A stretch of DNA of 64,000 nt from Desulfomonilia bacterium (GCA_963664325.2 CAXXDQ010000007.1:1-64000); one strand, 5' to 3'. Numbered from the stretch's first letter, positions 43,101 through 51,341 are shown. The notes: generated by a model not told the origin, from the letters alone. A program made the numbers and translations.

Positions 43101-46100
43101 ATGGTGGCCATAATATTATTCGGTCGGTGCCGGGGCATGGTTTTGCTTCCTCTACTCCGTAATCTTTCAATTCTGCTTCTGATTTGTTTCCTTATTACAT
43201 CCTGCAAACCAGATGCTCAATTCAGAGCATTTCCGACTAGCGGCAATGCCCCATTGACGGTGTATTTTGATGCCTCATCAGGCAAAGTCAAAGAAAACGA
43301 AAAGTTAACATACAAATGGGATTTCGACAGCGACGGTGTTACAGACGCAAAAGGACTCACCGCCTCGCACAGATATAACGCCGGTGTTTATAATGCGACT
43401 TTAACTGTCACAGATGAAAAAGGTATGTCAACCAAGACATCGCAAAAAATTAAAGCAGGATCAGGGGCGAGTATTCTGTCCGGTGCCTTGTCTGCAGACG
43501 CAGGAGAAGGTGAGGCAGAATCGGATCCCAATTACAATTCAAAGGGAATTACACCATTTCATAACTTTTCAAGCATGATGCCCTGTGAACAGGTCGATCC
43601 GTTCACAGGCAACCTTATGCTGACTCTGACACCATTTTCATTGCCACAGAAAGGCGGATGGAACCTGAATATCAATCTCGTTTATAACAGCAAGATATTC
43701 AGAGATCCGCAGTTCAAAGACATCGCTGAGGATTCCTGGGTCGGAATCGGCTGGTCGCTGCATATGGGACGCATCATCGCACCAGGCACACCATCGATGG
43801 CGGTTGAAATGCCGGATGGTTCATCGCATCAATGCTATTCAACCAATGGTGACGGAAGCAATGCCATTCAACCCTGGAGAACGCGGGAAAATTGGCTTAT
43901 CACCCGTGAAGATGAAATATATACGCTTGTTCTGGATGACGGGACAAAATATATCTTTGAATCCCTGGGCGGAGTGGTTGCCGGAAATAAAGTCTGTTAT
44001 CCGGCAACAAAAATCACCGATACATCCGATAATGATGTGATTATAAGCTACAGTCCCAGACAAACGATGTCCGGCAGACTGCCCTTTATTGACAATATTA
44101 GAGACACTTATGAAAGAGTAATCACCTTTTATCCCATCGTAAACGAAACCGGTCCATCATATTTGCAATCCATTTCATCAGGTGGGAGAACCTTTAATTT
44201 CACCTATTATAATGTTCCCGGGCAGGTAGGACCTTCAAGATATAAACTTCTAACAACTTTCAACGCGCCGCTGGATCAGAACTGGCGGTTCAATTACTAT
44301 GTGAAGAAGCCATTATTTGAACTGAAATCCTTTGTAACTCCAACAGGTGCCAAGATCAGTTATACCTACAACACAATGTCTTTTACTGATTTCAACAAAA
44401 GGCCGTTTAAACCCTTGAAGTTTCGTTCAGTAATTAAAAAGGAGCTTTCAGGTGACACCGTACCCGGCATCTGGGAGTATGAATATCAGAATGGCAACCA
44501 GACAAGGATTATTTGCAAAGACGGTTCCGATAAAATAGTAAGGGAAGAAATATACAATTTCTACGGTTATAACGATGTTGGCTACGGTTCTTTCTGGCTT
44601 ACCGGACTGGTAAGAAAAAAAACCCTGGGATATATATCAAAGGATGGGTTTCTTCGCAGAAGCCAGGAGGAAAATTATTCCTGGGACAGGCATATTGTAG
44701 TGGATCATGTTTCCGGCTCACTGCATTACGACGACAAGGTATATGCCCCTGTACTTAAGAAGAAAGAGATTATAAGAGGAACGAATAAAATATATACAAC
44801 AACTTATGATGGTTATAAGGATAATCCCTACGGACATCCAACATCAATAACCGAAACAGGCGACAGGACAAGAACGACAAACGTTGCATACTGGTATAAG
44901 GCTGATAAAAATATTGTAAATAACAGTCATGTAAGTTCAAAGACAGTCACTGTAGATGGCGAAAGCTATATCGATACATTCAGCTACTGGGAAAATACCG
45001 GCAAACTCCACACCAAAACGCTTATCGGTGTTACAACGACTTATGTCTATGACGGGTTCGGCAATCTTGAAATCATCACGGATGCAAACGGTCATTCAGT
45101 CAATTATGAAAATTACAAGTTCGGAAAACCCCAGACCATAGACAAGACCGAATATATTGAGAAATATGTAATAAATAATCAGTGGGGCGACACGGACCAG
45201 CAGTACATTGAGGGACGCGGCAATACTACATCCTATACTTATGACGGGTTAGGCAGGCTTAAAACAATAACCCCCCCTGTAGGTGCATCGACTGTTTATT
45301 CTTATCCGCTCCATGGCACATATGTGCTTGAATCAAGAGGCGGGTATTCGTTGTATACAATGTATGACTCACTTGGCAGGAAAACAGGCGCATATGAAGT
45401 CGGCGCATCAGTCAGAACAGACATCGAATATGACATACTCGGTCGAAAAATCTTTGAATCATACCCTTACAGTGTTGTATCTTTCACGCCTGCAGACCGG
45501 GAGGTTCAAAATCTGTCCCAGGATAATTATGATCCGAATTCACCTCCGGAAACACCAAGTCCGCCCTATGACCTTTCAGCGATACCTGGAGATACATATA
45601 TAACCATTGAATGGAAATGCGACTCAAATGAAGTATTTTTTGATATTAAGGACAACAGCGGGATTGTTTATCAGATGGGTGATATCAATGCATTTAGCCT
45701 ATACGGGCTTGAGCCGAGCACTGATTATCAGTTCCAGGTCAGGTCTGTGAGCTGGTATGACAGTACAATTACCTCAGAATGGGTATCTATCGGGGCAAGA
45801 ACAACAACTCCTGATACAACACCGCCTGCATCAGTAGAGAATTTCCATGCAACAACAAACGTCGATTCTGTCGAACTGACCTGGGACGGAAACACCGAGG
45901 CCGATTTGAAAGGGTACTGCATTGAATCCCAGGAACAGGGCAGCGGCGTCTGGAATTCCATAGCAAACCCCGGTTTTCCAGGAATGATAGAGGAATTTTC
46001 CTGCATCAAAGGCATGACATCCTGGACGGTGTTCAGTACCTTCATTAATCCTTTCTCAACTTACAAGTTCAGAATTCGAGCGGTGGACAGGAGCAGGAAC

Positions 46101-46148
46101 GAATCAAATAGTGTCGAATCCGGATGGGTAACACCCGGTCTGATATAG
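43101..46148 (+). CDS. Rhs/YD part 1: lipoprotein, PKD domain, N-terminal Rhs shell, two C-terminal FN3 domains
   Basis: Lipobox ITSC; WDFDSDG PKD; VDPFTGNL..YNSK; YD repeats (YTYDGLGRL, YDILGRK); GLEPSTDYQFQVRS and YKFRIRAVD FN3; no Rhs core. Confidence 0.85.
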   Translation: MVAIILFGRCRGMVLLPLLRNLSILLLICFLITSCKPDAQFRAFPTSGNAPLTVYFDASSGKVKENEKLTYKWDFDSDGVTDAKGLTASHRYNAGVYNATLTVTDEKGMSTKTSQKIKAGSGASILSGALSADAGEGEAESDPNYNSKGITPFHNFSSMMPCEQVDPFTGNLMLTLTPFSLPQKGGWNLNINLVYNSKIFRDPQFKDIAEDSWVGIGWSLHMGRIIAPGTPSMAVEMPDGSSHQCYSTNGDGSNAIQPWRTRENWLITREDEIYTLVLDDGTKYIFESLGGVVAGNKVCYPATKITDTSDNDVIISYSPRQTMSGRLPFIDNIRDTYERVITFYPIVNETGPSYLQSISSGGRTFNFTYYNVPGQVGPSRYKLLTTFNAPLDQNWRFNYYVKKPLFELKSFVTPTGAKISYTYNTMSFTDFNKRPFKPLKFRSVIKKELSGDTVPGIWEYEYQNGNQTRIICKDGSDKIVREEIYNFYGYNDVGYGSFWLTGLVRKKTLGYISKDGFLRRSQEENYSWDRHIVVDHVSGSLHYDDKVYAPVLKKKEIIRGTNKIYTTTYDGYKDNPYGHPTSITETGDRTRTTNVAYWYKADKNIVNNSHVSSKTVTVDGESYIDTFSYWENTGKLHTKTLIGVTTTYVYDGFGNLEIITDANGHSVNYENYKFGKPQTIDKTEYIEKYVINNQWGDTDQQYIEGRGNTTSYTYDGLGRLKTITPPVGASTVYSYPLHGTYVLESRGGYSLYTMYDSLGRKTGAYEVGASVRTDIEYDILGRKIFESYPYSVVSFTPADREVQNLSQDNYDPNSPPETPSPPYDLSAIPGDTYITIEWKCDSNEVFFDIKDNSGIVYQMGDINAFSLYGLEPSTDYQFQVRSVSWYDSTITSEWVSIGARTTTPDTTPPASVENFHATTNVDSVELTWDGNTEADLKGYCIESQEQGSGVWNSIANPGFPGMIEEFSCIKGMTSWTVFSTFINPFSTYKFRIRAVDRSRNESNSVESGWVTPGLI

Positions 46149-50800: not shown

Positions 50801-51341
50801 ATATGTTGATCCGGATGGGCAATGGGCAAGAAATGTTCATAAAACACTTACAATACAATGGGCACAAGCTGTACACTTCACACCACATGAAGCTTCAATA
50901 ATCGGCAAAGCCTGTATTGGTGTGGATTCAATTTGGAGAGGCAAGAGTTTTATTCCCCTAATCGGGGAACAGAGCTATCATTTCAATACCGGTGGCGGCG
51001 AATGGAATTCTAAAGAGGACACTAGAAGAATACATACTGAAGAGCATTTGCAGAAAGCTATACAACTGGCATCTATGGATTATTATAGAGCACTAAAGGA
51101 GTTGGGAATAGGGCTCCATGCTTTGCAGGATATTTTTGCTCATGATGAGGAAATGGGTTTGCAGAAAGAAATACTAGATGTGTATTATCATGACCAACCT
51201 GTTTTGGATTTAAAAAAGAATCGGGCGGATGATATTACTGATGTTCCAACACAAGGTAAAGAACGACTTATAATGACAGAAAATGCGACAAGTATTTACT
51301 TGAATCGTTTTCTTGATGCTACAAGTATAGGAGGAGAATGA
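47799..51341 (+). CDS. Rhs part 3: lipoprotein, 3 PKD, beta-propeller, Ig-like domains, Rhs core and C-terminal Zn-PLC/Het-C-like toxin
   Basis: LLLGC; three WDF.NDG repeats; HPSGKKLY and SPNGKKLY blades; YYHYDILGN..PYG..TGKERDETGLDYFGARYYD..GRFLSVDP..NNPYKYVDPDG; C-terminal domain with HALQD..H. Confidence 0.9.
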   Translation: MMNISVNFWKTILIGVILIGNNLLLGCKPTVFINASVENGKPPLEVKFDGFKTKDLGNDIIRYEWDFTNDGSIDSTGIETSHIYDIPGKYSARLVVTDSKGNSSEAKKIITVEPYARPQAVIEMSQQRGEAPLEVVFDGSFSTDEDNDIVTYNWDFDNDGEFEIVGSIKPVKIFESPGEYTVRLLVIDAQGLSSETAATVDATVHKEFQAVIKATPDAGESPLRVEFDGSSSTDNGYDPISSYDWDFDNDGIIDVSNSVTTAHTYDKPGKYTAKLIITDSKGNKAEAVQVIRSYGKERGYIPLYMPGDDFPYKHYLAIFDSSSQSLIETIELPVSASGYAAHPSGKKLYFSHWEDTGEELVTFIDIFDTYTRTIIQSINVGSIGSVNSLAVSPNGKKLYIGTHFGLYSLKLSDNSFNVVLSGGAFYKMAFSRDGGTRLYIVHSFPHGSQYITEIDTSNDRFTREHYVSGYIYGIECYNVGASPNFAQFNDFQPYVYLLTHDSFPAPQQNEQTNYITWVETEFAGNYLSNYVKELLPADGYFNYLASNWNGTRLYTAEQSSENTSSILNIIKIDTADRIMENLMLCDIVTKGGFEYLSGFGVPISDTRLFILSQTNIDPEWDEGDPIITCLSTDTLLLDETIVLPYHLDYGVNNFMVYSLNKISGRILSGGIPLAGYPVVISDGKVTKTSYTDEDGYYTFYMPDGSYDLKFLNDDSLCSVDEMPLNVNGQDIDIPDVAELLHLVCSVSDDVIYRGESTTLSWTTRQAESVKITPSLGQDIGSVDVNGSLDVSPLKKTTYSIQARGNGRSLTKELRVSVLYVAKILEFNSDRTTVYEGESVTLNWVIEDAEEIYLNGEEICDSIGSITVTPGQTESSYTIRARGTTGDYIIRTITISVVPQVVYYHYDILGNTIAQTDDQGRVIMKADFLPYGAAEQDLTGRGTPETRLYTGKERDETGLDYFGARYYDSSLGRFLSVDPAGPDPMNPMSWNRYAYCLNNPYKYVDPDGQWARNVHKTLTIQWAQAVHFTPHEASIIGKACIGVDSIWRGKSFIPLIGEQSYHFNTGGGEWNSKEDTRRIHTEEHLQKAIQLASMDYYRALKELGIGLHALQDIFAHDEEMGLQKEILDVYYHDQPVLDLKKNRADDITDVPTQGKERLIMTENATSIYLNRFLDATSIGGE
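50646..50776 (+). repeat. Rhs core repeat, copy 1
   Basis: 131 bp identical to 52110-52240 and close to the copy at about 54378-54508. Confidence 0.9.

Follow-up and report, generated by a model that had tools for sequence, protein, structure and literature searches.

The stretch of DNA analysed here, hereafter the window, comprises 64,000 nucleotides (nt) from a Desulfomonilia bacterium (GCA_963664325.2 CAXXDQ010000007.1:1-64000), and an open reading frame (ORF) scan places three tightly coupled + strand genes in its interval 43101-51341, over which the shell, core and toxin of one Rhs/YD-repeat protein are divided. Genes 1 and 3 share one reading frame, gene 2 uses another, and each of the three has its own ribosome-binding site (RBS). 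At the junction of genes 1 and 2 an AGGAGG overlapping the stop codon of gene 1 lies 10 nt 5' of the ATG at 46159, and stop and start codons overlap as ATGA both at the junction of genes 2 and 3 and between gene 3 and the first putative immunity gene (Table 1). A single protein made from the three genes by frameshifting or read-through is excluded, because two frames are used and the shell segments are separated by signal sequences and complete domains. The two points at which the shell is interrupted, seam 1 between parts 1 and 2 and seam 2 between parts 2 and 3, are spanned by Logan contigs from two runs of one sample (45900-48100) with 0 differences and 0 gaps, and both assemblies show the same three ORFs rather than a single one; the assemblies are independent of each other, whereas the DNA is not, coming from a single sample that is probably the source of the window DNA.

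Table 1. Features of the split Rhs/YD locus and of the genes that follow it (part 3 residues in P0003 numbering).
Feature	Position	Strand	Basis and remarks
Upstream AT-rich region	42706..43100	+	promoter-like sites 42975-43034; RBS GGAGG before 43101; start of low-GC island
Part 1 gene, P0001, 1015 aa	43101..46148	+	lipobox signal, PKD, plug and first shell half, 2 FN3
Putative Rhs plug and first half of YD shell	part 1 163-791 = 43587-45473	+	AlphaFold2 model, structural alignment
Two FN3 domains	part 1 816-1012 = 45546-46136	+	model versus tandem FN3 domains, Z about 13
Part 2 gene, P0002, 547 aa	46159..47802	+	signal peptide about 1-27, then YD shell alone
YD shell, second half	part 2 28-543 = 46240-47787	+	RHS repeats, model
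Part 3 gene, P0308, 1180 aa	47799..51341	+	public gene call; alternative ATG 47778 = P0003, 1187 aa
Three PKD stretches	part 3 about 37-298	+	domain scan
YVTN-type beta-propeller	part 3 about 320-660	+	PDB 1l0q (YVTN surface-layer protein), E 6e-19
CarboxypepD_reg	part 3 669-717	+	33.7 bits with segment scanned by itself
Two unassigned beta domains	part 3 about 750-905	+	alignment with relatives only
Rhs core	part 3 906-1015 = 50493-50822	+	TIGR03696
Toxin, 172 aa after DPDGQ	part 3 1016-1187 = 50823-51338	+	C-terminal domain
Putative immunity gene 1, 210 aa	51338..51970	+	signal-like N-terminus; start overlaps part 3 stop (ATGA)
Orphan cassette 1: C-terminal part of Rhs core and toxin	52029..52793	+	64% identical to P0003 923-1179
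Putative immunity gene 2, 216 aa	52790..53440	+	N-terminus resembles a signal; shares 49-50% identity with immunity 1 across 195-204 aa
Putative immunity gene 3, 221 aa	53573..54238	+	paralogue of immunity 1/2 (49-51%); no toxin directly upstream
Orphan 2: core fragment and unrelated C-terminal domain	54354..55097	+	76-80% identical to other cores over 44-46 aa
349-aa ORF	55137..56186	+	hydrophobic N-terminus, possible lipobox FINGC (by eye); candidate immunity gene for orphan 2

The three products differ in what they add to the shell. Part 1 (P0001) begins with a hydrophobic signal carrying the lipobox LITSC (Cys35), followed by a PKD domain at residues 37-114 (Pfam, E 4e-12) and by a linker at 120-158 that is modelled with low confidence. 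Its other Pfam matches are RHS repeats and fn3; the Rhs N-terminal plug family DUF6531 matches residues 163-242 with 21.6 bits, under the 24.1-bit cut-off, and from residue 163 the model matches the start of solved Rhs shells. In the AlphaFold2 model (33 aligned sequences; predicted local distance difference test score (pLDDT) 72.6, shell blocks mostly 80-95), residues 163-791 correspond to the first half of these shells (8qjd 360-875, Z 25.7; 8qjc 360-876, Z 23.1, root-mean-square deviation 3.1, 498 aligned; 7q97 302-832, Z 23.6; 8cp6_B 48-544, Z 24.3). The shell of part 1 ends with ...EYDILGRKIFESYPY, and the description of the chain in the initial annotation, as a lipoprotein with a PKD domain, the shell start and then two FN3 domains, is borne out by lipobox rule, Pfam and model alike. 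Part 2 (P0002), which had been described as resuming and ending the shell behind a signal peptide of its own, has indeed a hydrophobic N-terminus and shell repeats. The mature chain would start 2-3 residues before GTKYTYDNLDRL and ends with DYIYLGSKILVK plus 7 residues; it has no plug, core, toxin or anchor, RHS repeats being its sole domain matches among Pfam and TIGRFAM families. Its model (pLDDT 81.7) corresponds to the second half of solved shells (8qjc 787-1314, Z 20.1; 7q97 717-1241, Z 17.3; 8cp6_B 464-1010). The membership of parts 1 and 2 in one type of shell is also seen in PF05593 and TIGR01643, which match both, and in the models, which align to solved Rhs shells with Z 20-26.

Part 3 (P0308; residue positions follow P0003, which starts at 47778) carries the lipobox LLLGC and reaches its core, whose first residues are VVYYHYDILGN, only after a long series of decorations. 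The Rhs_assc_core family TIGR03696 matches P0003 936-1015 with 72.9 bits against a cut-off of 32.5 bits, directly before the variable toxin. No NHL propeller was matched by Pfam in part 3 or in the other parts, and the beta domains at about 750-905 match no Pfam family above cut-off; the earlier picture of a lipoprotein with three PKD stretches, propeller, core and toxin thus stands, and the label Ig-like given to these beta domains is unproven.

Aligned to relatives that are single chains and about 30% identical, parts 1 to 3 abut with neither overlap nor gap, in agreement with the proposed collinearity with a single Rhs chain. On P0057 part 1 (188-795) falls on residues 2-623 and part 2 (29-543) on 624-1081; the corresponding ranges are 11-635 and 636-1085 on P0059, and 5-593 and 594-1046 on P0058. 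Across seam 2, part 2 occupies 741-1210 and the part 3 core 1215-1351 of P0083, and on P0066 part 2 ends at 994 and the core starts at 997. Structural comparison with the toxin complex (Tc) proteins assigns part 1 to YenB 8-1478 (Z 17.1), part 2 to the TcC shells YenC2 4-576 (part 2 52-547; Z 17.9) and TccC2 8-547 (Z 17.6), and the part 3 core to YenC2 583-689. Since part 1 spans YenB and part 2 starts at the N-terminus of YenC2, the models would put seam 1 at about the TcB/TcC joint, equivalent within about 25-40 residues; seam 2 cuts the TcC equivalent just before the core. Chain breaks and large domain insertions are tolerated at two positions of the spiral, one at about the TcB/TcC joint and the other in the hairpin that directly precedes the core; this may be useful for understanding the origin of teneurin-like architectures and for split-cocoon engineering.

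The same gene split, for which a search in other genomes had been suggested, was found in other genomes. Among 7,624 candidates, a search for part 2 homologues gave 38 matches, 5 of which are stand-alone proteins of 534-547 amino acids (97-100% coverage; 91, 72, 38, 36 and 32% identity), each with a hydrophobic N-terminus, a shell starting 2-3 residues past the likely cleavage site and the end DY[IL]YLG.K..AKY.W; a profile search of 1.84 billion representatives added the stand-alone clusters P0044 and P0045. L021, a Thermodesulfobacteriota metagenome-assembled genome (MAG), has the same three genes and a small fourth gene (150-aa ORF), followed by an IS110 transposase. Its part 1 (997 aa) is 34% identical over 857 aa and has an FN3 tail, its part 2 (537 aa) is 32% identical, and its part 3 (490 aa) has a signal, the shared CarboxypepD_reg domain, a core 57% identical and a different toxin. 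The metagenome contig L043 carries part 1 (1006 aa, 41%) and part 2 (536 aa, 36%) and then ends. In the collection scans a stand-alone part 2 occurs in L021 alone of 22 genome loci and in L043 alone of 58 metagenome loci; a phylum-wide genome search gave no further split locus, its matches in 38 of 301 genomes being ordinary long Rhs frames or short fragments. In the wetland metagenome run X4, 26 short contig pieces are 90-99% identical to parts of genes 2 and 3 (46344-48100; 13 of 30 bins covered), and therefore close relatives of the locus are present in that sample.

Relatives of the outer parts also occur as separate proteins. The FN3 tail is present in the part 1 relatives P0192 (84%), P0193 (48%), P0194 (41%) and P0195 (34%), and P0197 ends straight after the same seam motif, without FN3. 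Part 3 has shell-less relatives, P0309 (lipobox, PKD, CarboxypepD_reg, a near-identical core and a different toxin) and P0310 (PKD, YVTN propeller, CarboxypepD_reg and core), which together with P0043 share with it the arrangement of signal, decorations, core and toxin. For P0309 and for one member of the P0192 cluster the longest contig is 13,257 bp in length, and the two may be on the same contig. A tree of the middle region was computed by a quick method from the first 45 of 71 near-full-coverage relatives (P0064, P0068 and proteins of more than 2,700 aa having been left out beforehand, signal-peptide columns dropped automatically and the root placed at the midpoint). It puts 10 split proteins on one side of a branch, opposite 45 fused relatives, with a Shimodaira-Hasegawa-like approximate likelihood-ratio test (SH-aLRT) value of 98, its sole measure of support; end branches in the split group reach 0.72 changes per column, and the tree fits a single, old origin of seam 1. 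Its recurrence in distant bacteria makes the split look like a functioning toxin container of several chains rather than a gene that has broken up.

Fused 'Rosetta-stone' forms were found for both seams. P0051 (815 aa), which is nested within the split group in the tree, fuses signal, part 2, core and toxin, with an identity of 38% to part 2 and of 50% to P0003 907-1151. Because its accessions HNY64457 and HOI06469 directly follow those of the part-1 protein P0193 (HNY64456 and HOI06468) in two MAG records, a two-gene, TcB/TcC-like form, with part 1 beside a fused part 2-core-toxin protein, very probably exists in a Deltaproteobacteria MAG. Of the 45 relatives that have parts 1 and 2 fused, 10 run into the core within 11 residues, in 9 an extra 29-833 residues separate the last shell strand from the core, and 5 end at seam 2; given these 9 insertions, seam 2 is a recurrent insertion site for adhesin-type domains, with or without a chain break. 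In P0055, P0196 and P0200 the fused parts 1 and 2 are followed C-terminally by Por_Secre_tail and FlgD_ig, with no core detected after seam 2 (P0055 checked), and these may be core-less shells exported by the type IX secretion system (T9SS). The arrangement in three genes belongs to a broader theme, other states of which are two-gene forms and single chains with seam 2 insertions. The family is rare, with a handful of clusters among billions of proteins, and its named records all belong to uncultured Thermodesulfobacteriota or Deltaproteobacteria.

The reading that we favour, to which we assign a probability of roughly 0.6, is that the locus encodes a polymorphic Rhs/YD toxin whose cocoon consists of three polypeptides exported by the general secretory (Sec) pathway and decorated at the seams; the architecture itself is real, conserved and rare, and would be a variation on the cocoons of several chains that Tc toxins exemplify. 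From export to delivery, we infer the following course. The three genes and the immunity gene would be expressed as a translationally coupled operon, and each product would cross the inner membrane by Sec, parts 1 and 3 as lipoproteins in this lineage and part 2 with an ordinary signal peptide. Part 1 (plug and first half of the beta-spiral) and part 2 would pair edge-to-edge at seam 1, outside the cytoplasm, into an open cup, to whose last part 2 strand (DYIYLG.K) the core strand of part 3 (YYHYD...) would be added at seam 2, so that the core closes the cup with the toxin of roughly 170 aa inside. The aspartyl-protease motif of the core would then cut after DPDG-x, and FN3, PKD, propeller and CarboxypepD_reg domains would hang outside at the seams, probably binding surfaces or target cells. 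New toxins may be acquired by recombination with the orphan core-toxin cassettes downstream.

Several observations weigh against this proposal. The signal peptides were called by a simple rule, a 12-residue Kyte-Doolittle window together with a lipobox pattern, and by the same pattern the proteins of L021 and L043 lack a lipobox; the mature part 2 chain carries no anchor itself, and no route across the outer membrane is evident. On the distant Rhs templates that belong to type VI secretion systems (T6SS), about 80-115 residues are common to the structural ranges of parts 1 and 2 (8qjc 360-876/787-1314; 7q97 302-832/717-1241), an overlap that we ascribe, with caution, to repeat register and to a longer combined shell; clean abutment therefore rests on the sequence alignment to closer relatives. 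The family of the toxin is weakly assigned: the match to Zn_dep_PLPC (PF00882) is found in orphan cassette 1 alone, with 19.7 bits against a cut-off of 26.8 bits, a phmmer comparison of the orphan toxin with the PDB gave chance-level matches (E 0.84 and above), and PF00882 occurs in only 12% of the members of the neighbour cluster in the Atlas. Lastly, 21 of the 45 fused relatives have tails in which no core is detectable, carrying FN3, CARDB, PKD, TSP3 or T9SS sorting domains; some of these are truncated records (at least P0163), and core-less shells may have a life of their own.

The latter point bears directly on what we regard as the strongest rival, and still an unlikely one, according to which the three proteins are functional and exported without ever forming a single closed cocoon, part 3 acting as a self-sufficient surface toxin and parts 1 and 2 as open YD sheets with a role as adhesins or scaffolds. 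The core-less tails, with T9SS sorting domains in some relatives, and the 5 fused chains that end at seam 2 would suit such a division of labour, as would the shell-less part 3 relatives and a lone core-toxin ORF found elsewhere in the genome. On the other hand, relatives at 32-48% identity retain the gene order and the two breakpoints, the pieces together make up exactly one shell, and in P0051 part 2 is fused straight to the core. The first core strand follows the decorations of part 3 in the position in which it follows the last shell strand in single chains, and with half a spiral the beta edges would stay open and the cavity exposed, all of which argues against this rival.

A second rival keeps the cocoon and moves its assembly into the cytoplasm, where TcB-TcC cocoons are known to fold, with the hydrophobic N-termini acting as anchors or remaining unused and exit taking place by lysis, in vesicles or through a system yet to be described. 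The long N-terminal segment of P0006, which is more like a signal anchor, would agree with it. Signal-like N-termini are nevertheless present in every protein examined (6/6 part-1, 9/9 part-2 and 4/4 part-3 proteins), so that the export signals proposed for the three chains are found in all family members by the hydrophobicity and lipobox rule, and the immunity paralogues carry them too (3/3). The first shell strand of part 2 lies 2-3 residues past the likely cleavage site. Single-chain relatives of the clade begin with a signal and then directly the plug, and for this reason the whole clade looks Sec-exported at the sequence level. Cytoplasmic assembly is accordingly improbable. The proposed lipid anchoring holds by the lipobox rule for the window and its nearer relatives (P0001, P0192, P0193, P0308 and P0309); as the proteins of L021 and L043 have no lipobox, lipid anchoring is lineage-specific and not a conserved part of the mechanism.

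It could also be supposed that a decaying or rearranged Rhs locus has left non-working recombination products, given that Rhs loci are recombination hot spots, that orphan fragments lie downstream and that the operon stands in a low-GC island (42000-57000; guanine-plus-cytosine fraction about 0.35-0.46 versus 0.55-0.60 in the flanks), located between a TetR gene and a DUF362 gene. This is highly improbable, since relatives as distant as 32% identity have three intact frames and retain the breakpoints as well as separate signals and RBS, the split group is deeply diverged and lies on one side of a well-supported branch, and whole extra domains rather than frameshifts are found at the breaks. 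That the toxin is cargo of the T6SS of the genome is scarcely credible: TssC and VgrG genes exist, but the only ones lie about 770-880 kb from the window, PAAR was not found in the genome (95.6% complete), all three chains have Sec-type N-termini, and the nearest relatives carry Sec signals or T9SS tails. The initial annotation had noted the absence of PAAR, VgrG and TcA genes from the window. In the genome TcA/VRP1 was not found, by a search that gave no match in control genomes either.

Within the three-chain, Sec-exported cocoon that we favour, a more specific and tentative possibility is that assembly and loading of the cocoon both take place outside the cytoplasm. A standing open cup on the envelope would then be formed by parts 1 and 2, and part 3 would be an exchangeable lid with its cargo, docking by beta-strand addition, with the toxin threaded in after passage through Sec. 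Rhs, Tc and teneurin cocoons are thought to enclose the toxin with a single chain or, in the cytoplasm, with two; a conserved three-chain version with a Sec signal on each chain raises the question of whether a YD shell can be built, and a toxin enclosed, outside the cytoplasm from separate parts. If the cup-and-lid scheme is true, this would be the first YD cocoon to encapsulate its toxin in trans, after translocation, and recombination of the orphan cassettes could supply one cup with different lids.

Downstream of part 3 lie three paralogous small ORFs with a putative immunity role and two orphan core-toxin ORFs. Pfam gave no family for the putative immunity ORFs or for the ORFs at 54438-56985. 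Since all three putative immunity paralogues carry signal-like N-termini, the toxin probably acts in the cell envelope. P0003, P0309, P0310 and P0043 part in sequence after DPDG. In the alignment of the cores the Asp residues D984, D989 and D1011 are invariant. Rhs cores are cut one residue after DPxG, and in the alignment DPDG-x-W is common to P0003, orphan cassette 1 and P0051; cleavage would leave Trp as the new N-terminus of the toxin, by analogy with mature Zn-phospholipase C and P1 nuclease, and the sequence weakly suggests a Zn-phospholipase-C-like toxin. The third immunity paralogue and the genes at 54354-56186 look like a graveyard or a reservoir of cassettes. Around the locus, promoter-like sites were no commoner than in shuffled sequences (47 versus 43.0 +/- 7.6) and terminator-like sites were uninformative (16 versus 10.4 +/- 3.3); no transfer RNA gene was found in the window and no integrase among its scanned ORFs.

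Other loci provide some further observations. In the same genome, a lone 276-aa ORF (L101:7237-8067; G000:C7:135237-136067, - strand) combines an Rhs core (TEN_YD-shell, TIGR03696) with a Tlde1/YkuD-like L,D-transpeptidase domain; this orphan toxin is distant from any shell gene and abuts an RNase G gene, with an IS200-like transposase nearby (L101:5650-6651). The genome also encodes an ordinary single-chain Rhs of 1640 aa (L102:6570-11492; G000:C4, - strand), with proteins of about 1000 aa, composed of WG-containing beta repeats (PF14903), as neighbours on either side. Directly upstream of the L021 operon (L021:2425-6958) stand five tandem paralogous genes of about 240-320 aa with a signal-like N-terminus and a coiled-coil-like C-terminal tail, which gave only weak Shugoshin_N matches and have no counterpart upstream of the operon in the window.

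No report of an Rhs shell split over three genes was found in full-text literature searches, a scope outside which supplements lie, including the locus tables of bacterial teneurin-like proteins (TLPs) in PMC13018210. Canonical Rhs toxins hold plug, shell, core and toxin in one polypeptide, whereas three ORFs are used here and in L021. WapA-type YD toxins of Gram-positive bacteria are Sec-dependent, surface-attached members of the Rhs family with an immunity gene, each a single chain anchored to the cell wall, and we know of no gene-level split among them. The T6SS Rhs effectors (RhsA 7q97, Tse5 8cp6, Tse15 8uxt and S. bongori Rhs 8qjc) share with the present proteins the shell fold (Z 20-26) and the Rhs core family. 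They undergo autoproteolysis into pieces that stay together; unlike them, with their single gene, one-chain shell and T6SS export with PAAR/VgrG, the locus described here has separate genes, Sec-type signals and no PAAR found in the genome.

Sec-dependent RHS toxins are listed in the text of PMC3482391. According to the main text of PMC13018210, TLPs are Sec-exported, often signal peptidase II lipoprotein, YD-shell toxins of Gram-negative bacteria including Thermodesulfobacteriota and Myxococcota, which carry a propeller, FN-type domains and a downstream immunity gene and are single chains in which FN-plug, NHL and YD shell follow one another in a fixed order; in that main text the word 'split' occurs once, for dividing an alignment. 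The TLP structure 9ifo aligns to the models of part 1 (Z 16.2) and part 2 (Z 14.5), and the lipoboxes on parts 1 and 3, called by rule, and the immunity-like ORF at 51338 are further points of likeness. The present system differs in that the shell is cut twice at the gene level, the propeller is YVTN-like and placed in the third chain before the core, and the putative plug is Rhs/DUF6531-like. The closest parallel in chain organisation is offered by the BC components of Tc toxins (YenB/YenC2, 4igl; TcdB2-TccC3, 4o9x), which similarly form a multi-chain YD cocoon with a C-terminal toxin behind a self-cleaving Rhs core, and whose shell is divided at about the same joint in the structural alignment. 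In contrast to these, the cocoon proposed here comprises three chains, with its TcC equivalent divided in turn immediately ahead of the core; a Sec-type signal stands on each chain, adhesin-type domains stand at both seams, part 1 has no SpvB or in-shell propeller match in Pfam, and, as with interbacterial toxins, the locus continues into immunity genes and orphan cassettes.

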